A DNA stretch of 64,000 nucleotides from Scenedesmus sp. PABB004 (taxonomy: Eukaryota), in NCBI GenBank assembly GCA_014905635.1, contig JABVCE010000036.1:186001-250000 (forward strand), written 5' to 3'. Shown here piece by piece: positions 45,582 to 57,342 of this stretch. The position numbers were made by a program, and so were the translations under genes. How positions within the stretch are numbered: position 1 is the first letter of the stretch; every line of letters begins with the position of its first letter. The notes beneath the pieces were generated by a model, which was not told the DNA's origin, ran no database searches, and saw nothing but the letters and a program-made list of their open reading frames with translations.

Positions 45582-47177
45582 ATGGCTTCGGCGCTGGCAC
45601 ATCGCCAGGCCGCGGGCGCGGCGGGCTGCGGCAGCAGAGCCGATGCCCGGCTGCGCGCGGCCGCGCCCGCGGCCTGCGGCGGCCAGCGGCCCGCCCGCGC
45701 TGTCCACACGGGCCCCGTGGCGCGGCCGCAGCAGCAGCAGGGCAGCCACGCGAGGTGGGGGCGCGGGCGGCGCGGCGCGGCGGCGCGCTGCTGTCGATCA
45801 CTCGGCGCCTCACCAGCGCACGCCCGCGCAGGCTGCTGGCGCCGCTGCAGGCGCGGCGGCGGTCGCCGGTGATCGCGCCCGACATAACGTCGGGCATGGG
45901 CGACGAGCAGGTGCGCCGCCGCCGGGCCGCGCGGCGCAGCTGCTGCCGCGCGGCGGCCGCCGGGCTCTGGCTCAGCCTCGCCGGCAGCGCTCCGTGTGCA
46001 CCGCGCCGGCGTCGCCGCAGCGCGGGCGCCCGCACGCTCACCGCCGCTGCCGCCCCACGCCGCCGCCGCCGCGGCCGCTGCCGCGCGCAGTCGTTCACTG
46101 ACCTGTTCAACTACCTGCTGCGCCAGCGCATCATCTTCCTCTCCGGCTACGTCAACGACAAGGTGCGCGCGCGCGCATGCGTGTTTGGGAGGGCGCAGGG
46201 GCGGCACGCAGGGCGCGCAGCGCAGTGCCCCGCCCACGCGCACGGCCCCCCGCCGCGCCGCCGCGCCGCCGCGCCGCCGCCGCGCAGCTCGCGACGCAGG
46301 TGGTGGGCAGCCTGCTGGCGCTGGAGGCGATGGACGAGGAGGCTGAGATCCGCATGTATATCAACAGCCCCGGCGGCACGCCCTACAGCGTGCTCGGCGT
46401 GGTCGACGCGATGCAGGCGGTCAAGCCGCCCATCCAGACGGTCGCGCTCGGCGCGTGCTACAGCTACTCCAGCCTGCTGCTCGCCGCGGGCACCAAGGGG
46501 CGGCGGTTCAGCATGAAGAACACGCGCATCATGATGACGCAGCCAATGGGTGCGCGCCCGCGCCCCCGCGCCGCGGCACCGCCCTCACCTTGCTGCCGCA
46601 CCCGCCGCCGCCGCGTCAACAGCGCCCGCGCCTGCGCGCCGGCGCGCGCGCGCGCGCCGCCCACGAACCAACGGCGGCCGCCCGCCGCGCGCGCTCTGCG
46701 CGCCGCCGCGCAGGCGGCAGCCAGGGCGACATCTACGCCATCGCGGAGACGGTCAAGGAGCTCAACGCGATCTACCAGGTGCGCCTGCAGCAGCGGCGGC
46801 GGCGCCCGGCGGGGGCGCGGCACCCCCGCCCGCCGGCGCCGCCGCCCGCGCCGACCGCCCACGCCCGCGCCGCCGCCGCCGCCCGCGCCGACCGCGCACC
46901 CCCCCCCCCCCCCGGTCCGCCCGCGCCCCCCGCGCAGCTGTTTGCGCGGTACTACATGAGGTGCAGCGGCATGTCGGCCGACGCGGTCGAGGCGGCAACG
47001 TGCCGCGACACGTTCATGACGCCCGAGCTCGCGGTCGACGCGGGGCTGATCGACGCCGTCATCCCCGCGCCGGGCGACAACGTCACGCCGCCCGCGGTCG
47101 TGCGGCAGCTGGAGGAGCTCGGCTTCGTCGACCGCCTCAGCGCGCCGCTGCTCGGCGCGAGCGGCGCGCGCCTGTGA
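45582..47177 (+). CDS. Plastid Clp protease subunit, probably non-catalytic ClpR (ClpR6-like), 6 exons
   Basis: DLFNYLLRQRIIFLSGYVND, IRMYINSPGG, TVALGACYSYSSLLLAAGTKGRRFSMKNTRIMMTQPMGG, RDTFM, GLIDAVI. The catalytic His position (IHQP) reads MTQP. Transit peptide present. Confidence 0.9.
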
Positions 47178-47626: not shown

Positions 47627-48321
47627 TCAGTTGGCCGGCGTGCAGATGCCGTCAAAGCAGACGGACGGCGGAGTGAGCGTGGCGTTGCAGACGGTGCCGT
47701 TGCGCACAGGTGCCGTGGTGCTGCAGCCGACGCGGCCACGGATGCAGCCCGCGCCGACGTTGCAGACAGGCACCGGCGCGCACACGGCGTCCGCGCCGCC
47801 GGGCGAGTAGGTCTCTGCGCGCGCGGCGGGCGGGCGGGCGGTCAGCACTCGCTCACTCGCAGCGCGGCGGCGGCGCAGCGCTCCGAGGCGCAGCGCTCAC
47901 TCGGGCCGCAGCGCTTGCACGACTTGCCCCCGAAGCCGGGCTTGCAGGGCCCCGTCGGCGTGCACGGCGCGCGGCCGCCGGGCGACCACTGGCCGTCGTC
48001 GCACTTCTTGCAGATCGCCAGCTGCAGCTGGCTGGGCCCGGTGCCGTAGCCGGGCGCGCAGTTGCAGCACAGGAACAGCGTGACGTTCGGGGACGAAGAG
48101 AAGCACTGCGCACAGCCCGGCATGTTCGTCAGGACCTCACACTCCGGCCCGCTGCGCGTGTCGCTTCCGCACGCGCCCATCGGGGGTGTGGGCTTGGGGC
48201 TCGGCGAGGGCTTGGGCTTGGGGTGCGAGTTGAGCAGGGAGCGCTGGCCCGCCGCCGGGCCAGCCAGCAGCAGCACCAGCGCCGCCGCGGCGCCGCAGAG
48301 GCGCATGGTCACGGCCGTCAT
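47627..48321 (-). CDS. Small secreted Cys-rich protein with SP/KP-rich linker, 2 exons
   Basis: Signal peptide MRLCGAAAALVLLLAGPAAG, then PKPKPSPSPKPTPP, then repeats CKKCDDGQWSPGG and CKRCGPK|TYSPGG (GCC2/GCC3, ephrin-receptor-like style). About 20 Cys. Confidence 0.78.
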
Positions 48322-48745
48322 GGCGGAGAGTTCGGTCGCACCTGCGGCGTGACCAGCGGCGCCGTCGTGCCGCGCAGGACCAACAGCGTGCGTGACCAGG
48401 CTGAGCAGCCTGCTGATGCCGCACTGGCGGCAGGCCCGGCTGCTGCTGGCGGGCGCGCAGGCGCTCGGACGCTCCCAGCTGGTGCTCACGCACCGAGAGG
48501 CAGGCGCCGCGCTCGTTGGAGCAGGGCGCCGAAGGCCGAGCGAAGGCCTCGTGCGCACGATGCCGCCGCGCACAGGCTGCGCTCGATCGACCCGGGGAGG
48601 CGACGGGCAGAGGGGTGTCTGCGGAGAGCGGCTGACCGCGCCGACCGTGCGGAGGCGGCCCGCCGCCGCCATGCGCGGAGAACTGACGGAGCGCGGGTTC
48701 TGCGGGCCGCCGCGGGGTTTCGTGCGGTTGGGCCGGCCTGCCCGC

Positions 48746-51325
48746 TCACGCCGCCCCCGTCACCAGGGCGGCAGAGTGCTGCCGGTGTGCGTCCAGCACG
48801 CGCCGCAGCCGCCGCGCCCACGCGTCGCCGCGCGGCGCGCCCGGCGCCGCAGCCGCCGCGCCCACGCGTCGCCGCGCGCGGCGCACGAAAGCGATCACCT
48901 CCGACCGCCCAAATCGGCAGCGCAGCGCGCACCGCTCCTCCCCGTCCTCCCCGCAGCGTTGCAGGACGTCGCGCACAAACGCGCCGAGGTCGGCGCAGCG
49001 GCTGGGCAGGCGCACGCCGAGCACGGCGCAGCGCGCCGCGAGCGCCGCGCAGACCGCAGGCAGCGGCTCGCCGCCGAGGCGCAGCTCACACGCGCCGCCG
49101 CCGCCGCCGCCGGCCGTGTGGTAGTTGGGGCCGCCCCAGGGTGGGTCGAGGAAGGTGACGTCCTGCCTTCGCAGCTGCCCCAGCAGGCGCACCGCGTCGC
49201 CGCACGCCACCGCCACCGCCGCGCCGCACGCGCCCCGCGGCTCGGCTCGCAGCAGGGCTAGCCGCGACAGCGCGTCGTCGCTCAGCGCCAGCTGCGGCGC
49301 CGCGCCCGCCTGCTGCGGCGGCGCCTCGGCGCCAGGCTGCGCCGCCTGGCCCGCCGCCGCGGCGTGCGCCAGCAGGAGGCCCACGTTGGCGGCCAGGTCC
49401 TCCGCGCGGTCCGGGTCCAGCTCCAGCGCCGTGACGGCGCCGAACGCTGGGCAGCCGAGGAAGCCCGCCGTGCTGCCGCCCGCGCACGCGGTGAGGTCTG
49501 CGACGCTCAGCTGGCCGCGCCGCCGCTCCTGCTGCTGCTCCTCTGACTGCTCCGGCTGCTGCTCCAGCTGCTGCTCCGGCTGCTCCGGCTCCCCCCGCGC
49601 GGTGAGCGCCAGCGCGGCCAGGAGGGCGGCGATGGCAGCGGCGGTGGGGCCGTCGGTCGTGCTGAACGCCGCCACCGCGTCCAGCCGCAGTCGCCGGCGC
49701 ACCGCAAAAGGCAGGCTCGGGAACAGCGCGTCCGCGCGGCCGGTGCACCACGACAGCTGCGCCGGCGGCGCGCCCGGCGCAAGCACCTGGGGCGGGCAGC
49801 GGGCGCGGCTGAGCGCAGGCGCAGCGCGGCAGGCGCGGCGCGCGGGCGCCGACCGCCTGCAGCAGCTGCGCCCCCAACCCCCTCCCTTGGCCCCACGGCG
49901 CACCAGCTGGCCCTGCAGCGCCTCCAGCGCGGCCGCCGCTGCTGCGGCGTCCTGCAGCCACACGCGCGCCCAGCCCCGGCTGCGCCGGCGCTCGCCGACC
50001 GCGGGCGCCACCACGCCGGCCACGCCGTGCGGCGCAAACGCGGCCAGCAGCGCCTGGCGCACGGACGCTGCGGCGCAGGCGCCGGGAATGCAAGACACAA
50101 AGAGGGCCACCGCGTCGCTGCTGCGGGGGCCGCCGCCGCCGCCAGCCTCGTCGCTGCCGTCACCATCGTCGCCGGCCGCCGCCGCTGCCGTCGCTGGCGC
50201 GGCCGCCCGCTGGACGCTGAAGCGCAGTGCTGCCGGCTCGCCCCCGTCCGCGGCGCAGCGCTGCAGCTCCGCCTGCAGCTCCGCGCGGCTCACGTGCGGC
50301 GCGGCGCCGCAGTGGCAGGGCCGGGCGATGCCGACCAGGTGCTGCAGGTGCGCGACGCACGGCCGCGCGTCGAAGGGCGTGTCAGCCCACAGGTGCAGCT
50401 TGGCGCACGCGCCATACGGCAGCGAACGCGGCCAGGCGCCGCCGCCGCTGGCACTGCTGTGCGGCTGCTCCGCCCCCGCCGCGACGGCGTCCAGCAGCCG
50501 CCGACACACCGCGGCCGCCTGCGCCACGGGCACGCCGGCCAGCCTCACCGGCCGCGCGCCGGCCGGCACGGCCGTTGCACCGTGCCGTGGCGGCGCGCCC
50601 ACGCTCCCGCCGCCGGCCGCCGCCGGCTGCTGCGCGGGCGCCCCGCGCGCGGGCGCGGGCCAGGCCGCCCCGAGCTGCTCCAGCAGGGCGCGCAGCTCGC
50701 CGTCGCTGCCGGCCGCCGCCGCGAGCGCCGCCGTGAGCGCCGGGTGCAGGGCGATCGCCGCGCTGCCGGCCGCCGCCTCCGTGCGCCCCACCTCCAGCCG
50801 CAGCGGCACGCCCAGCCTCTCCCAGCGGTGGAACTTGGCGCCCGGCGTGTCCGCGCCGGCGTCGAGCAGCGCCGGCACGCCGCCGGCGTCCAGCAGGGCC
50901 GCCAGGCGCTCGCTCGCCGCAGCGCGGGCGGTGCCGGGCGCAGCTGCTGCTGCTGCATCGTGCCGCCCGGGCGCGCCGCTGGCGTCGGGTATGGGGACGA
51001 TGACCGCCTGGACGCCTGCTGCAGCCGCCAGCTCAGCGTGGCGCACGCAGCGCCGGCCCTCGAGGGCGTTCCAGCACACGACGTCGGCGACCTTTTGCGC
51101 GCGGCGCCGGCGGCCGCCGTCGGCGCTCGCCACCAGCAGCATCGCGGCAGCGCTGCCGGCCCTGCGACAGGTGTGTGTGTGGGGGGGGGGCGGCGGACAG
51201 GGGGCGCACCCTGCCGCCGCGGTTGGGGCCGCTGAGACCCAGAGCAGCGGCGGTCGCGCGGCGCGCGCGGCGAGGGCGCGGCGACCCGTGCGCGGCCCGC
51301 CAGACCGCTGAGGTGCTGCATCCAT
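48746..51325 (-). CDS. Multidomain RNA methyltransferase: ProRS-type anticodon-binding domain + RRM + Tgs (trimethylguanosine synthase)-type catalytic domain, about 3 exons
   Basis: QAVIVPI...LLDAGADTPGAKFHRWERLGVPLRLEVG (class IIa anticodon-binding), LFVSCIP...SRGWARVWLQD (RNP2/RNP1), RLDAVAAFSTT, VADLTACAGGST, VTALELDPDR, CGDAV, DVTFLDPPWGGPNY. In-frame intron 49787-49903. Start is ATG 51325 via an intron, or ATG 51142. Confidence 0.82.
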   Translation of the reverse strand: MDAAPQRSGGPRTGRRALAARAARPPLLWVSAAPTAAAGCAPCPPPPPHTHTCRRAGSAAAMLLVASADGGRRRRAQKVADVVCWNALEGRRCVRHAELAAAAGVQAVIVPIPDASGAPGRHDAAAAAAPGTARAAASERLAALLDAGGVPALLDAGADTPGAKFHRWERLGVPLRLEVGRTEAAAGSAAIALHPALTAALAAAAGSDGELRALLEQLGAAWPAPARGAPAQQPAAAGGGSVGAPPRHGATAVPAGARPVRLAGVPVAQAAAVCRRLLDAVAAGAEQPHSSASGGGAWPRSLPYGACAKLHLWADTPFDARPCVAHLQHLVGIARPCHCGAAPHVSRAELQAELQRCAADGGEPAALRFSVQRAAAPATAAAAAGDDGDGSDEAGGGGGPRSSDAVALFVSCIPGACAAASVRQALLAAFAPHGVAGVVAPAVGERRRSRGWARVWLQDAAAAAAALEALQGQLVRRGAKGGGWGRSCCRRSAPARRACRAAPALSRARCPPQVLAPGAPPAQLSWCTGRADALFPSLPFAVRRRLRLDAVAAFSTTDGPTAAAIAALLAALALTARGEPEQPEQQLEQQPEQSEEQQQERRRGQLSVADLTACAGGSTAGFLGCPAFGAVTALELDPDRAEDLAANVGLLLAHAAAAGQAAQPGAEAPPQQAGAAPQLALSDDALSRLALLRAEPRGACGAAVAVACGDAVRLLGQLRRQDVTFLDPPWGGPNYHTAGGGGGGACELRLGGEPLPAVCAALAARCAVLGVRLPSRCADLGAFVRDVLQRCGEDGEERCALRCRFGRSEVIAFVRRARRRVGAAAAAPGAPRGDAWARRLRRVLDAHRQHSAALVTGAA

Positions 51326-51418
51326 TCCCAGCTCCTCACACGTGGCCGCGCGACCCACCGCGATCTCCGCGCCACCCGCGGGCCGCGCGCTCGGGCAATC
51401 AGGCGCGCCGCGGTCCCC

Positions 51419-52299
51419 ATGCAGCCGCCCGCCGCGGCGCTGCTGCTGGGGCGCGTTCTGCCGCCCCTGGCGTCGCCGGGGTCCGCGCTGGCGGCGCTGT
51501 GGAGCGGGCAGCTCCGCGGCGCGAGCAGCAGCAGCAGCAGCGGCGCGGCCGCCGCTGCCGAGCCGGCGGCGCCGGCGCCGGCTCGGCAGCCGCCCAGCCG
51601 GCACGAGCGCAACGTGGCCAACCTGCGCTTCTGTCAGGAGCGCGCGGCGTGGCGGCGGGCGGTGAAGGAGCTGCGCAAGACGTGGCTCGCGGAGCACCGC
51701 GCGCGTGTCGCGGCGCACCGCGCGAGCGCTGAGGCCGCGCAGCAGCAGGTCGCGCAGCTGCGCCAGCTGCGCGACGCGAGCCGGCAGCAGGACCGGGAGA
51801 AGCAGAAGCTGGAGCGGGAGATCCGCGACGCGCAGCGAGAGGTCGAGACGGTGCGCGGGGCGCGCGGCGGCGGCGGCGCCGGCGGCGGCGGCGGCGGCAG
51901 CTGCGGCGGCGGCTGCGGCAGCAGACGCTGGCGCGCGCGGGACGCGCGAACGCGCACGGGGCGCGTGGACGCGCCCGCGCCTGGCTCGCGCCGCGCCGCC
52001 CCGGCACAACGCGCCCCGCACCGCGGCGCGCGCCGCAGACGGAGCTGCGGCTTCGCTCAGCGCTGCGCGAGGAGCTGCGCCAGCAGACGCTGGCCAAGTT
52101 CAAGGCGGAGCGGTGCGCGGCGGCTGCCAGCGGCCTCGCGAGGGGCAGGTCGCCGCGGCAGCGTGCCCACTGCCGCCGCCGCCCCCGTCGCCCCGCCCGC
52201 AGGCGCGCCGCGCTGCTCGAGGCAAGCCGCGTCTGGGTGCCGCCGGACGCGCTGGCGGCGCGCATCGACGCCGCGCTGGACAACCCAAAGGAGCTGTGA
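51419..52299 (+). CDS. Mitochondrial small ribosomal subunit protein mS26-like, 3 exons
   Basis: Presequence, long charged helix WRRAVKELRKTWLAE, and C-terminal LLEASRVWVPPDALAARIDAALDNP characteristic of mS26. Confidence 0.68.
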
Positions 52300-52458
52300 G
52301 CCGCGGCGCCCGGGGCGGCCTCGAGCGCGCCGCAGCAGCGTGTGACGCTAGCTCGAGGCTCGACCCGCCGTGAGCCCTCGCCGCGACGCTAGCCGGCCGC
52401 CGCCGTTTGTCCCCTCGCTCGCACACGCCCGACCGCGCTGCCCCAACCGCCTGGCCTG

Positions 52459-54271
52459 ATGCTGAGCAGCGCCGCCCGCGCGCTCGCTGCCCGCCCCGCC
52501 GCCGCTGCCACCACCGCCGGCTGGGCCCGCTGGCGAGGCAGCCCGCCGAGCGCGATGAGCAGCAGAGCTCAGGATGCACTGGCGCTCGTGTACACCGGTC
52601 CGCGGCGCGCGCTGCTGCTCACTCCAACGGCCGCCGCCGCTGCGACGCGCCTGCCTGCAAGCCCTGACGCCCGCGTGCTGCAGAGTGGGCGAACAAGCCC
52701 GACTACCTGCGCCTGCTGGCGGAGCGCGGCGTGCCGGTGGTGGACGCCGCCGAGGCCACGGACGAGCAGCTCGCGCGCGTGGCGTTCGCGTGCGTCTGGC
52801 CGCGCCGGTCGCTGCCGGAGCTGCTGGCAAAGGTGGGCGGCGGCGGCCAGCCGGTGGCGGCGCGGCGACCGTCGGCGAGGCCGCAGCGCGCACGGCGCAC
52901 CCCCGCGCGCGCGCAGTGCCCGGGCCTGCGGGTCGTGATGTCGCTCGGAGCGGGCGTGGACGCGCTGCTGGTGCCGGGGCAGGTCCCGCCGGGCGTTCCC
53001 ATCGCGCGCATCGTGAGCACGCGGCGCGTGCGCGCGCGCGGCCGCGGCGGCCCGGCGTGGCGAGCGCGGCGCGGCGCGCCGCGCTGCGCTGCCGCCGCGC
53101 CGCAGGCCGACCCGGTCATGGCTCAGCGCATGGCCACCTGGGTGGTCTGGGGCGTCATCAACTGGCAGCGCCGCATGGACGACTACGCCGACGCGCAGCG
53201 CCGGTGCGTGGCCGGGCGTGCGGCGCAGCGCGCCGGGGTGGAGTTGCCGGTTGGGTGGTGCCGCCGCGTGGGCTGGCGGCCGGCCGGCCGGGGCAGCGCC
53301 GCTCGCCGGTGGCGCCTCGCCGACTCACCGCCCGCTGCCGCCACGGGCGGGCGCCGCAGGTGCAGCTGGGATCTGAGCATCGAGGCGCGTGCCAACCGCG
53401 ACAACTGCGACGTCGCCGTCGGCGTGATGGGCCTGGGTGAGCTCGCGCCGCGCCGCGCCCCCGGCCCCCCACGGCGGCGCGGCCGGCGAGCAACGCGCGC
53501 ACGCGCGGGCCCGCCGCTGCCGCCCTCCGCGGCCGCGGCGCAGGCGTGATGGGCCTGGAGTCGGCGCGCCAGCTGGCGGCGCTCGGGTACAAGGTGTCGG
53601 CGTGGAGCCGCACCACGCGCGGGCACGCGGCCGGCGCCGCGGCGGCGCCCGGCCTGCGGTGCTACGCCGGGCGGGAGCAGCTGCAGGCGTTTGTGAGCGA
53701 GCAGGACGTGCTGGTCTGCCTGCTGCCGCTCACGCCAGACACGCAGGGTGCGCCGCGGGCGGGCCGCGCGCGCGGCGCGGCGCTGCCTCGGCAAGCCTGG
53801 GCGCCGGCCCCCCGGACCCCGCCGCCGCGCGCCGCGCGCAGGCATCGTGGACGCGCAGCTGCTGTCCTGGCTGCGCCCCGGCGGCGCGGTGATCAACGGC
53901 GGCCGCGGCAAGCAGCTGGTGGAGGCCGACCTGCTCGCCGCGCTCGACAGCGGCGCGGTCGGCTCTGCGCTGCTGGACGTGTTTGACCCCGAGCCGCTGC
54001 CGCGCGGCAGCCGCCTGTGGGGCCACCCCCGCGTGCGCATCACGCCCCACGTCGCGAGCATGACCACGCTCGAGGCGCGGTGGCGGCGGCGCGGGCAGCA
54101 GCGCGCGGCGCGCGGCGGCGCCGCGGTGCGGCGGGCGGCAGGCCCGACGCCCGCCGCGCCCGCCGCCCGGCGCAGACAGCGGCCGACCAGATCGCGGCCA
54201 ACTACTTCAGCGTGCTCGCCGGCGGCGGGGTGCTGCCGGCCAACCAGGTGGACCCGGGGCGGGGCTACTGA
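52459..54271 (+). CDS. Glyoxylate/hydroxypyruvate reductase A (GhrA)-like D-2-hydroxyacid dehydrogenase, 8 exons
   Basis: [59 protein letters not shown] and terminal VDPGRGY. Organellar presequence. Last intron 54075-54175 is GC-AG. Confidence 0.93.
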
Positions 54272-54539
54272 CGGCGCCGGGGCGCGGGTGCGGTGCAGCC
54301 GCCAGGGCACAGCGGGGCCCAGCGGTGCTCCCCCGCCGGCGCGGGGCTCGCTTCGCGGGGTGCGCCTGTGTGATCGGGGCAGTCCTGGTGACCTCCCGCG
54401 CAGTGTGGCGAGCTCCCAGCAGCAGCAACGAGGCTGCCGCCCGCACGCTCGTTCCCCTGTCGGGCCCGCGCGGGGTCGCGTGAATCTCAGATCTCTTTCC
54501 GCCGCACGCGCCAGCCAGCCGCCTGGGCGCGGGAGCAGC

Positions 54540-57342
54540 ATGCAGGTGGCGCGGCCGCACTCGACCGGCCTGGCGCCTGGCGGTGCCGTGCGGATGCGGT
54601 TGACGGCCCCGAAGCTGGCGGGCGCCTTCGCCTGCGCGTCGCGCCGCCCGGCCGTCGCGCGCGCCGCGGCGCCGGCGCCCGGCGGCCGCGCAGCGGCGGC
54701 GCCGGCGCCGGCGCTGCTGGCGCGCGGCAGGGGGCGCGCCGCGCCGCGCGTGCTCTGCCGCTCGAGCCCCGCGCCGGGCGCGGCCAGCCGCAGCTGGCGG
54801 CGGGGGCTGTGGACGGCGCTGGACGCGGCGGCGCTGCTCGGCTCGGTCGGCGGCGCGCTCGCGGCGCTGCTGGGCTGGGCGAGCCCCACCTACGCCCTCA
54901 TACTGCCCCTGGTGCTGCCGGTGGTGTCGCTCATCGCGGCGCTGCAGCGCGAGGACCTCACGCACCAGGAGGGCGCGGCCGCGCTCGCCGGCCTGCGCGG
55001 CACGCTCGGCGCCGACGGCGGCGCGCTGCTGCGCGGGACGGCGGCCGCGATCGATGAGGTGCGCCCGCAGGCGGCGGCCCCGCGCGCGGCGCGGGCCGGC
55101 GCGCGCTGAGCCACCGCGCCGCCGGCCGGGACCCGCGCAGGTGCGCTCCGAGGTGCGCGCCCAGGCGGCCGCGTCGGGCCGGCTGGCGGCGCTCGAGGAC
55201 AAGCTGGCCGTCCTGGAGGGCGCGGTGGTGGGCGCAGGTGGGCGAGCGCCGAGCGCTGCCGCGCGGCGGGCGCCGTGCGGCGGCGGCGCGCCCGCGCGCG
55301 CCGAGCGCCGCCTGCCCCCGCACGCGCGCGCCGCAGCGCGCAACTCGCGCGAGGCCGCGGTGCGCGTCAACACGCTGGGCGCGAGCCTGGGCCTGGTGCT
55401 GCAGCAGCAGGGCCCCGCCGCGCTGGGCGCGGGCCCCGGCGCGCAGGCGAACGCCGCGGCGCTGGCGGGCATGGTCGCCGGGGAGGTGCTGCCCATGCTC
55501 AAGGCGGAGCTGGCCAGCGGGCTGGGGCCGTGGCTGGCAGAGCAGGGCGCAGCGATGAAGCGTCTGGACACGCGCCTCGCGGTGCGCCGGCCGTGACGGG
55601 GCGCGCGCCGGAGCGCGCACGCGCGCGCGCGCGGCCGCGCCGCCCGGGCTCGCCGCCCTGCCTCGCCTGCCCTTAGCGCCGTGCCGGCCCGCGCCGGGCG
55701 CACAGGTGGTGGAGGGCTCGCTGGCGGGGCTGGAGATGGCGCAGAGCGAGGGCCTGCGCCGCCTGGGAGGGAGCATCACCAGCAGCCTCACCGACGCGGA
55801 GGCAAGCCTGCAGAGCTCCGTGCGCGTGGAGGTGGCGGCCGCGGTGGAGCCGCTCAGGCAGCTGCCCCAGCTCGTGGCCGCGGCGGCGGCCAAGGCGGCG
55901 GCCGCGCAGGCGGGCCAGCCCACGGGCGCGGCCGGCGCAGAGGCGGTCGCCGGCGAGGCCGCGGTGCCTGGCGCCCCTGGCGGCGCGGGCCTGGTGGACC
56001 CTGCGGCGCTGGCACAGGAGCTGCGCGAGCTGGTGGCGGCGGAGGTGGCGGCGGCCACGGCACAGCTGGGGGGCCAGCAGGTGCGCGGCAGCCGCTGCGG
56101 CCGCAGCGCAGCTGAGCCGGCGCTGGCGGCAGCTCCCCGCCTCTGCGCTTGCAGCCCCCATGCCCCCCCCCCCACCTGCCCTGCCCCGACCGCCCGCCAG
56201 GCCGACATCCTGGCTGCCCTGGCCGCGCCGCCGCGCCCCGCGCTGCTGGCTGAGGAGCAGTGGGACGCGCTCGGCCGCCGCCTGGCGCGCCTGGAGCGCC
56301 TGGTGGGCTCCCTGCCCGAAATGGGTGAGACGGCGGTGGCGGGGCAGCTCGCGCCGCTGCTGGCGGCGCAGCAGGCGGCCGCCGACGCGCAGCAGGTGGC
56401 GCTGGGCCAGCTGGGCGCCGCCGCGGAGCGCCTCGGCGGCAGCACCGAGCGCGCCGCCGCGCTGGCGGACGAGCTGCAGGGCGTGGCTGGCCGGCTGGAG
56501 GCGGCGACCGCGCAGCTGCTCGGCGGCAGCGCCGCCGACGGCGGCGGCAGCGCGCTGGCCGCTGCGGGCGCCGACGCGGCGCGCATGCTGGAGCGCCTGC
56601 AGGGCAGCGTCACGCAGCTGCTGGACCAGCAGCAGCAGCAGCAGCAGCCGCCGGCGGCCGACCCCGGCCCGCTGCTCGAGTCGCTTGCCGCCCAGGTCGC
56701 GGGCCTGGGCGCGTCGCTGCAGCAGGTGCAGATGGACATGCCGCTCCAGATCCAGCTGGCGGTGGGCTCCGCGGCGTCGCAGCAGGCCGCCGCCCGCGGC
56801 GACGCGTTTGACGGCGCCGCGTTTGATGACGGCGGCGGCGCGTCCGCCGCGGCCGCGGCGTCCGCGGCCACCGCCGCCGCAGCCGCCTCGAGCGCGGCGC
56901 AGGGCGTGGCGGAGCTGCGCCAGCAGCTGGGCGGCGTGGCGGCGGCGTGCTACGACCTGCGCGCGCAGGTCAGCACGCTTGCGGCGCAGGTCGCGGCGCA
57001 GCAGGCGGCGACGCTCGGCGCCGCGCAGGAGGCCGCCGTCGCGCAGGCGCGCGACACCGAGGCGGTGGTCGCCGCGGCGCAGCAGCAGCTCGCGGACGCG
57101 GGCGGCCAGCTGAGCCGGGAGCTGGCCGACCAGCTCGCAGCGCTGTGCGGCGGCCTGGAGCAGCAGCTGCAGGGGCTGCAGCAGCAGCTGGTGGCGGTCG
57201 CCGCGTCGGCGGCGAGCCGGGCGGCGACGGAGGCGGCGGCGGCCGCCGCTGCTGCCGCCGCGGCGGCGCCCGTGGCGCCCGGCGCGCCGCTGGGCCTGCC
57301 GCAGCAGATCGAGGGCGGCGCCGCGGGCGACGGCAACGTTGT

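Follow-up and report, generated by a model that had tools for sequence, protein, structure and literature searches.

A ProRS-type anticodon-binding domain and an RRM joined to a Tgs-like guanine-N2 methyltransferase in a conserved family of algal proteins

Enzymes of the trimethylguanosine synthase (Tgs) type have been described as free-standing catalytic domains or as catalytic domains with lineage-specific extensions, their RNAs being picked through partner proteins or through the context of a ribonucleoprotein (RNP). The characterised enzymes are specific for m7G and are reported to work in vitro without an RNA or protein partner (PMC2588526, PMC4615557). Two of them, Tgs2 of Giardia and the Tgs of Trichomonas, go no further than m2,7G (PMC4615557, PMC2588526), and it has been remarked that organisms with dimethylguanosine (DMG) synthases must have a set of DMG-capped RNAs that has yet to be identified (PMC2588526). 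The prolyl-tRNA synthetases (ProRS) of the E-type carry an anticodon-binding domain (ABD) that is followed by a zinc-binding C-terminal domain (PMC11229370). The subject of the present analysis is a gene in a 64,000-nucleotide stretch of DNA from Scenedesmus sp. PABB004 (contig JABVCE010000036.1, positions 186,001 to 250,000; "the window") whose product carries a ProRS-type ABD, a module rich in conserved Cys and His residues, an RNA recognition motif (RRM) and a Tgs-like methyltransferase in one chain.

The protein is a member of a conserved and apparently undescribed algal multidomain family, a Tgs kind of protein with an added, presumably RNA-selecting half. As judged from conserved motifs and predicted models, an even chance is given to a targeted cap guanine-N2 methylase, in which the ABD, the Cys/His module and the RRM would select an RNA and the Tgs half would methylate it. 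In such an enzyme, one particular RNA or RNP would be bound by the ABD and RRM, the m7G cap would be stacked on W669 by the Tgs domain, and transfer of a methyl group from S-adenosylmethionine (SAM) to N2 would leave a limited set of RNAs with m2,7G or m2,2,7G caps. The enzymatic activity, the cap as its substrate and a targeting role for the ABD and RRM are each plausible. A literature search, from whose coverage subscription journals are largely absent, found no publication on the combination of ABD, RRM and Tgs domain or on the Chlamydomonas gene Cre12.g549850, in agreement with an earlier note made from the letters of the window alone, which had not recognised the architecture as characterised. 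The same search found no characterisation of proteins in which an RRM is combined with a methyltransferase bearing a DPPW motif.

The case for cap methylation is carried by the C-terminal half of the protein, which is encoded by the second of two coding exons (Table 1). The model of exon 2 was predicted with a mean local distance difference test score (pLDDT) of 85.1 and a predicted template modelling score (pTM) of 0.86. A Foldseek search with this model placed active human TGS1 (hTGS1) at the top (E = 1.5e-7), and a VIA comparison aligned residues 13..302 of the model with residues 634..844 of active hTGS1 (PDB: 3gdh_A, Z = 21.4, RMSD: 2.5, 193 of 211 residues). Included in the alignment is the helical N-terminal extension, which is required for cap binding by hTGS1 (Monecke 2009, PMC2709555). 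The next entry scored Z = 16.2, and a shortened, inactive form of TGS1 (PDB: 3egi) scored Z = 15.9. When searched against the sequences of the PDB, a profile made from six family members (A1) matched hTGS1 at E = 1.2e-11, and a profile of 40 methyltransferase sequences (A4) matched it from the FS.T loop to the LP.. motif at E = 1.9e-26. The Tgs catalytic domain named in the earlier note is thus supported by both profile and fold. In a viral library, the best named matches were RNA methylases of giant viruses, for example a cap guanine-N2 methyltransferase from a Megaviridae environmental sample (E = 7.3e-9).

The residues on which hTGS1 relies are largely in place. In the human enzyme, D719 contacts the SAM ribose, Y771 contacts the alpha-phosphate, and W766 is the sole stacking partner of m7G, with less than 1% activity remaining in the W766A mutant (PMC2709555). 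Counterparts of these three residues (E574, Y674 and W669, respectively) are kept in the window protein, as are those of D696 (D549), N731 (N586), P764/P765 (P667/P668), G767/G768 (G670/G671), P806 (P713), S671 (S494) and T673 (T496). Across the 16 full-length family members, the D, P, P and W of motif IV are invariant along with D549 and the motif II glutamate E574, and Y674 and both glycines are at least 90% conserved. In 40 sequences of the wider DPPW family, the D, P, P, W and Y of this motif and the motif II glutamate are likewise invariant. When the best 150 relatives were scanned with the pattern [DSN]PP[WFY], motif IV, wherever it was found, read DPPW with the exception of a single DPPY, and none read SPPW. 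The methyltransferase half belongs to a DPPW branch with Giardia Tgs2 and mimivirus Tgs, to which it is likened by published descriptions of the motif; the occurrence of DPPW in these two enzymes, mentioned in the earlier note, is indeed stated by Monecke 2009 (PMC2709555). The aspartate is well tolerated by hTGS1, since the S763D mutant retains 97% activity (PMC2709555). As a TGS1-type pocket is retained, cap guanine-N2 methylation is the most likely activity.

The N-terminal half begins with the ABD. In a Pfam search with the raw open reading frame (ORF), HGTP_anticodon (PF03129) was the only family above its threshold (E = 1.6e-7, 31.8 bits, cut-off 21). The segment QAVIVPI begins at residue 44 (position 51013), numbering from the ATG at 51142. 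An hhalign comparison of the N-terminal half with a genuine ProRS (P0178, which has PF00587, PF03129 and PF09180) returned a probability of 98.2% (E = 3.5e-14, 38% identity over 77 columns), with the alignment confined to the ABD. Among PDB sequences, the six-sequence profile identified the ABDs of eukaryote/archaeon-type ProRS at E-values down to 8.9e-11. An AlphaFold model of exon 1 (mean pLDDT = 78.3, pTM = 0.66) placed E-type ProRS chains first in a Foldseek search (probability 1.00, 92 columns), and in a VIA comparison residues 33..224 of the model superimposed on human ProRS (PDB: 4k86_A, Z = 13.4, RMSD: 1.9, 114 residues aligned), followed by HisRS (Z = 12.6) and then by ThrRS and GlyRS. 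A class II synthetase core (tRNA-synt_2b) was not found by Pfam in the 1091-aa ORF at E<=1, nor at E<=0.01 in the 44 stop-to-stop ORFs of at least 150 aa that lie between 44741 and 59080 on both strands. From the sequence comparisons and the model, the domain appears to have been copied from a eukaryote/archaeon-type ProRS, with no synthetase core. The earlier note had described just such a class IIa domain without its core, with the proviso that the segment should model as an anticodon-binding fold, as it does. A ProRS-like motif within the domain, [PA]G.K[FY]..[WAH]E..G..R.E.G (TPGAKFHRWERLGVPLRLEVG in the window), is kept in 14 of the 16 full-length members.

The specifically ProRS-like nature of the ABD and the retention of its motif favor a tRNA-directed enzyme, in which the ABD would bind the anticodon loop of tRNA-Pro at G35/G36 and the methylase would make an internal m2G there or on a tRNA-like RNA. 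In eukaryotes and archaea, recognition by ProRS depends chiefly on G35/G36, and the ABD is the domain that reads these two bases (PMC11229370, PMC12152171); synthetase-derived modules are known to guide the tRNA methylases in DALRD3-METTL2 (PMC7237682) and METTL6-SerRS (PMC11479938). The tRNA guanine-N2 methylases Trm11, Trm1 and Trm14 also share the fold of the catalytic half at Z-scores of approximately 14-15. However, these scores, at most 15, are well short of the Z = 21.4 obtained with the cap-specific TGS1; the TGS1 N-terminal extension, the stacking tryptophan and the tyrosine for the alpha-phosphate are all kept; and the characterised Tgs enzymes are described as m7G-specific (PMC2588526). 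A tRNA-directed role, which would make the protein an analogue in one chain of DALRD3-METTL2 or SerRS-METTL6, is the foremost rival reading and is considered unlikely. A related and similarly tentative proposal is that of an anticodon-guided guanine-N2 methyltransferase, in which the ABD would read a GG-containing, anticodon-like loop, either of tRNA-Pro or of a tRNA-like element in a capped RNA, and Tgs chemistry would be carried out on that RNA alone.

An ABD need not act on tRNA. The VIA search with the exon 1 model also identified anticodon-binding folds in proteins that are not synthetases, namely NCOA5 (PDB: 1v95, Z = 11.8), the HisRS-like domain of GCN2 (PDB: 8t7t, Z = 10.2) and an entry for human DNA polymerase gamma (PDB: 8d33, Z = 10.0). 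These matches are consistent with a scaffold, in which the ABD and Cys/His module would serve protein-protein contacts or folding and the enzyme would be a general cap hypermethylase, possibly the main Tgs of its lineage. Two members (P0010 and P0012) have lost the ProRS-like motif and keep the architecture, and UniRef names the Chlamydomonas eustigma member simply as a trimethylguanosine synthase. The scaffold is nevertheless doubtful, given that the motif is retained in 14 of 16 members across chlorophytes and a glaucophyte, that an RRM always stands beside the ABD, and that a basic residue stands in place of F804 of the dimethylating human enzyme. The most plausible role of the added ABD and RRM is to confine the enzyme, or recruit it, to particular RNAs.

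The RRM was modeled with high local accuracy (block-mean pLDDT of 86-96 over residues 341-410 and 80 for residues 411-413). Residues 344..413 of the model superimposed on the third RRM of HuR (PDB: 6gc5_A, Z = 9.3, RMSD: 1.9, 66 residues), and approximately 30 further RRMs followed with Z-scores of 8-9, in support of the RRM that the earlier note had proposed. The six-sequence profile also matched the RRM protein PABP among PDB sequences (E = 4.9e-5). RRM motifs are commonly gauged against the RNP1 and RNP2 consensus sequences with their aromatic residues. The RNP1 of the window protein, RGWARVWL, has a tryptophan at position 3, which is present in 14 of 16 members, and an arginine at position 5; the phenylalanine of RNP2 is kept in the window protein (LFVSCI) and is found in 8 of 16 members, with leucine or valine in most of the others.

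Two clusters of Cys and His residues had been pointed out in the earlier note, and these were found at residues 22-35 and 261-283. The first has the family consensus CWRxLEGRxC, whose first cysteine (C23) is present in 15 of the 16 full-length members and whose second (C33) is present in 14. The second is part of a longer module that lies between the ABD and RRM. In 27 sequences, C246 is invariant and H250, C262, H265, C276, C278 and H283 are at least 90% conserved, a pattern that suggests the module is probably metal-binding. The first 40 residues and residues ~245-310 were modeled confidently (block-mean pLDDT mostly 85-96; 74-96 over residues 241-310 and 90-96 for residues 251-290). Neither part had a fold match among those listed by VIA for the exon 1 model, a search in which such parts are barely tested. 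The module had no match in Pfam at E<=1, and its best neighbors in the ESM Atlas, with scores of 0.77 and 0.76, fell below the level of a lead and were rejected. A remnant of the ProRS zinc domain PF09180 was likewise not detected: there is no Pfam match, the hhalign alignment with P0178 ends at the ABD, and the module was modeled only within exon 1. The zinc finger of zf-CCCH type has the spacing C-x8-C-x5-C-x3-H. The suggestion of such a finger in the earlier note did not hold, as no zinc-finger family was detected at E<=1 and the spacing is instead CxKLH...CxxH...CxC...H. The protein from Scenedesmus sp. NREL 46B-D3 (P0002) is without the entire CxKLH...CxxH...CxC module that the other 15 of the 16 members keep, owing to either an exon skipped in the gene model or a true loss.

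Several observations weigh against a targeted cap methylase. The window protein falls below the Pfam cut-offs for both Methyltransf_15 (PF09445, E = 0.05, 13.6 bits, cut-off 22) and RRM_1 (PF00076, E = 0.11, 12.9 bits, cut-off 20.7), the former cut-off being passed by 15 homologues. Of the four families for which an HMM scan had been proposed, HGTP_anticodon lies above its cut-off, RRM_1 and Methyltransf_15 lie below, and zf-CCCH was not found; the folds of the ABD, RRM and Tgs domain were borne out by structure prediction. In motif I, N704 of hTGS1, whose replacement by alanine lowers activity to 5% (PMC2709555), corresponds to a serine (S557) in the window protein and to asparagine in most relatives. 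The cap triphosphate is contacted in hTGS1 by K646, Y771 and R807, of which Y771 has its counterpart in Y674. Toward the C-terminus, R807 aligns with S714 and N808 with R715; the arginine follows the serine in the chlorophyte clade, and Cyanophora has P-R-N. The first part of the extension, which includes K646 and Y647 in hTGS1, has no alignment at the level of sequence. A subclade comprising P0010 and P0012 is without the PG.KF..WE motif of the ABD, which makes for a weaker case for a conserved contact of the anticodon type. Finally, at the position of F804, all 16 members have Arg or Lys.

The last of these substitutions bears on the product. In hTGS1, F804 is proposed to contribute to a pocket that accommodates the first methyl group while the second is being added (PMC2709555), and with F804 replaced the product may stop at m2,7G. 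Single methylation is only hinted at by this substitution, because the Trichomonas enzyme, which is known to methylate once, is described as having a serine motif (PMC2588526). For the same reason, DPPW was rejected as a rule for marking enzymes of single methylation.

The distribution of the family was examined with an exhaustive profile search, which returned 3597 proteins at E<=1e-3; of these, 724 remained when the threshold was set to E<=1e-10, and 78 when it was set to E<=1e-30. The profile matches come without names, and 30 of the proteins were named; word-indexed protein searches returned 6, 3 and 8 matches and were swamped by low-complexity words. Among 174 retrieved proteins, sub-profiles identified an ABD and a methyltransferase core in the domain order described here in 21. 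A further 32, such as that of Paratrimastix pyriformis, combine the RRM, extension and core but have no ABD, and in 79, such as that of the rotifer Adineta steineri, the extension and core stand alone. Matches to just the N-terminal or just the C-terminal half mostly lie on short contigs and probably represent fragments. The full architecture is present in at least 12 named species, all of them chlorophytes but for one glaucophyte. These include two species of Scenedesmus, Chlamydomonas reinhardtii (CHLRE_12g549850v5, 1135 aa), C. eustigma, C. euryale, Edaphochlamys, Volvox carteri, V. africanus, Pleodorina, Tetrabaena, Tetraselmis astigmatica and the glaucophyte Cyanophora paradoxa.

Two of these members, from Tetraselmis astigmatica (MMETSP) and Chlamydomonas euryale (EukProt), have identifiers of a transcriptome type. 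The MMETSP identifier of the former is taken here to denote a transcriptome origin, and the Tetraselmis entry is support at the RNA level, in a relative, for all of the domains on one transcript. Transcript-derived relatives that carry the whole domain order also speak against two separate genes, an outcome that the earlier note had allowed for.

A quick maximum-likelihood tree of the methyltransferase region was calculated from 110 rows and 226 columns, leaving out rows without both sub-profile matches or without PPW and seven near-duplicates. Seventeen of the 18 rows that bear an ABD fall in one clade (SH-aLRT 96) adjoining relatives that bear an RRM, and the remaining members of the clade are truncated proteins. 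Cyanophora lies outside of the clade, among the RRM-bearing relatives, and the deeper branches are weak. The simplest history would be the addition in algae, once or twice, of an ABD from ProRS and of the Cys/His module to an old RRM-bearing, Tgs-like enzyme.

The public names given to family members conflict. Tetrabaena socialis P0008 is called a Proline--tRNA ligase, P0010 (JGI) a 16S rRNA G966 N2-methylase RsmD, and C. eustigma P0011 a Trimethylguanosine synthase; others are called hypothetical protein, and none of the names covers the whole protein. The name Proline--tRNA ligase is misleading because no class II core was found and no homology was detected beyond the ABD. A C-terminal motif, HHPxFFDWEK..W..LSRWKG, is common to DPPW methyltransferases without an ABD and is not present in the ABD-bearing algal clade. 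Its bearers are P0045, P0059, P0070, P0071, P0075, P0076, P0085, P0034 and P0040, one of which is from Paratrimastix pyriformis. By sub-profile, they mostly have an RRM, except for P0040, P0045 and P0085.

At the level of DNA, the G+C content of the window is 75-83% in every 2-kb bin and approximately 80% overall, and 290 stop-to-stop ORFs of at least 150 aa are present across the six frames. With long ORFs in all six frames, the length of an open frame is not evidence of a gene here. It might be supposed that the frame is merely held open by its composition, that two genes have been joined, or that the methyltransferase is dead. In addition to the long ORFs, the reading of the ORF straight through an intron, a deposited gene model that is itself a fusion with the next gene, and the motif I serine at the position of N704 in hTGS1 would all be in keeping with such an artefact. 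Codon-position G+C content, however, tells exon from intron and antisense (GC3 of ~0.92 and GC2 of ~0.63 for third and second positions), and both exons carry the coding signature: GC3 is 0.92 and GC2 0.65 in exon 1, GC3 is 0.93 in exon 2, and GC2 ranges from 0.61 to 0.65 over the two exons. Moreover, 78 library proteins match at E<=1e-30, the colinear order is found in 21 proteins that include transcript-derived ones, the catalytic and SAM-binding residues are invariant, and both models are confident. An artefact or dead gene is thus very improbable. From the coding signature and strong homologues, the frame is a real gene, beyond chance.

The gene is a single nuclear gene of a very GC-rich chlorophycean alga; it lies on the minus strand and encodes 759 aa (Table 1). 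All four elements that the earlier note had assigned to one minus-strand frame were located where it had placed them. Its reading of one polypeptide is upheld; an in-frame intron of 117 nt between the RRM and methyltransferase had been overlooked. This intron has a GC2 of 0.90, unlike the exons; the protein deposited for this species (P0001) does not contain it, and in all homologues it corresponds to a clean gap. The homologues of exon 2 align through to the C-terminal end, including the LPSR and FGRS motifs.

The 5' boundary at 51325 that had been proposed is unsupported, since the homology of P0001 and of all relatives starts at the ATG at 51142. The raw minus-strand ORF (48746..52021, 1091 codons) is only partly coding. 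Over its upstream stretch, 51326..52021, the G+C content by codon position is 0.93/0.69/0.82, a pattern due to a plus-strand ORF at 51419..52345; the stretch fits the antisense of this ORF and is not coding in the minus-strand frame. The plus-strand ORF abuts the 5' end of the gene and encodes a basic, coiled-coil-like segment (ERNVANLRFCQERAAWRRAVKELRKTWLAEHR), for which no Pfam family was detected at E<=0.01.

Table 1. Features of the minus-strand gene, with positions given in the window
Feature	Position	Strand	Description
Coding exon 1	51142..49904	minus	413 aa; N-terminal Cys motif, ABD, Cys/His module and RRM; start ATG at 51142
N-terminal Cys motif	51038..51079	minus	VCWNALEGRRCVRH; residues 22-35; family consensus CWRxLEGRxC
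Class IIa ProRS-type ABD	50471..51046	minus	residues ~33-224; low-confidence insert at 166-195
Cys/His module	50213..50413	minus	CxKLH, CxxH, CxC, H; residues ~244-310; putative metal site, no named family
RRM	49904..50125	minus	residues ~340-413; RNP2 LFVSCI, RNP1 RGWARVWL
Intron	49903..49787	minus	117 nt, GT..AG, in frame and stop-free; ORF reads through
Coding exon 2	49786..48749	minus	346 aa; Tgs-like methyltransferase with N-terminal helical extension
Tgs-like guanine-N2 methyltransferase	48881..49750	minus	helical N-terminal extension (GRADALFP...FSTTD) and Rossmann core; two low-complexity inserts
Motif I DLTACAGGS	49472..49498	minus	SAM binding; D549 = hTGS1 D696, S557 = N704
Motif IV DPPWGGPNY	49121..49147	minus	D666 = S763, W669 = W766, Y674 = Y771
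Stop codon TGA	48748..48746	minus	ends exon 2

The best protein match to the gene is P0001 itself, a hypothetical protein deposited for Scenedesmus sp. PABB004, at 94% identity. The identity is not 100% because the two gene models differ. After residue 646, P0001 has an extra intron at ~49087..48340 and then continues in the next ORF. This splice takes out half of the methyltransferase, the C-terminal one, and with it the LPSR and FGRS motifs kept by all relatives. Since motifs common to all relatives are lost, P0001 is read as an annotation error, mis-spliced so that two genes are apparently fused and the methyltransferase is shortened; the alternative would be a rare isoform.

Within the region 47630..49087 of the minus strand, the next ORF has a signal-peptide-like start (MTAVTMRLCGAAAALVLLLAGPAAG) and Cys-rich repeats. 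On the plus strand, a Clp protease gene is spread over two frames at 46102..47177 (Pfam CLP_protease, E = 7.9e-29 and 3.9e-5) and must therefore have at least one intron. The NAD-binding domain of a D-isomer-specific 2-hydroxyacid dehydrogenase is similarly spread over two frames at 53441..55109 (E = 2.2e-6 and 1.5e-19), in an intron-bearing gene.

The significance of the family lies in a synthetase-derived ABD and an RRM that are built into the chain of the methylase itself. That this arrangement has been kept in lineages as different as a glaucophyte and Chlamydomonas speaks for selection on a specific RNA target. If that target were a subset of capped RNAs, the family would address the remark on DMG-capped RNAs made for organisms with DMG synthases (PMC2588526); if it were a tRNA, a new route to m2G would be implied. 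The public annotation of the family is inconsistent, and the deposited model of the window gene is probably mis-spliced. To our knowledge, guidance of methylases by synthetase modules has so far come only from two-protein m3C systems. Were the anticodon-guided proposal true, the algal protein would be the first case in which such a module shares one chain with an enzyme of the cap type, and a class of algal RNAs that are m2,7G-capped or m2G-marked might be defined by it. As a member is present in the genetic model C. reinhardtii (CHLRE_12g549850v5), the question is directly testable.

Among known systems, human and yeast TGS1 (PF09445; PDB: 3gdh) share with the algal protein a Rossmann core and extension, the acidic residues for SAM binding, the stacking tryptophan of the PPW motif, the GG pair, the tyrosine for the alpha-phosphate and the Ser/Thr of the FS.T loop. 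The algal protein differs from TGS1 in having DPPW instead of SPPW, in the replacement of F804 by Arg/Lys and, in the window protein, of R807 and N704 by Ser, and in its two low-complexity inserts in the core and its N-terminal ABD, Cys/His module and RRM. The Giardia Tgs2 and mimivirus Tgs enzymes share the DPPW motif (PMC2709555); in contrast to the algal protein, these and the Trichomonas Tgs are described as small, single-domain and partner-free (PMC4615557, PMC2588526). Closer in domain order are the proteins that combine an RRM with DPPW, such as PAPYR_9062 of Paratrimastix pyriformis, which have the same succession of RRM, extension and DPPW core and adjoin the algal clade on the tree. 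They are without the ABD and Cys/His module, and several have the C-terminal HHPxFFDWEK..W motif.

The N-terminal half is best compared to E-type ProRS, with which it shares the ABD (38% identity over 77 columns, Z = 13.4); the segment bearing Cys and His residues that follows stands where E-type ProRS has its zinc-binding C-terminal domain (PMC11229370). In contrast to ProRS, no class II core was found in the algal protein and there is no detectable homology past the ABD. The logic of joining a synthetase-derived module for tRNA recognition to an RNA methyltransferase is the same as in DALRD3-METTL2 and SerRS-METTL6 (PMC7237682, PMC11479938). Those pairs are made up of separate proteins, the guiding part being either a DALR domain of class I or an entire SerRS, and produce m3C32, whereas the algal protein is a fusion of a class IIa ProRS-type module with a cap-type guanine-N2 enzyme. 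The resemblance is thus one of functional analogy and not of homology.

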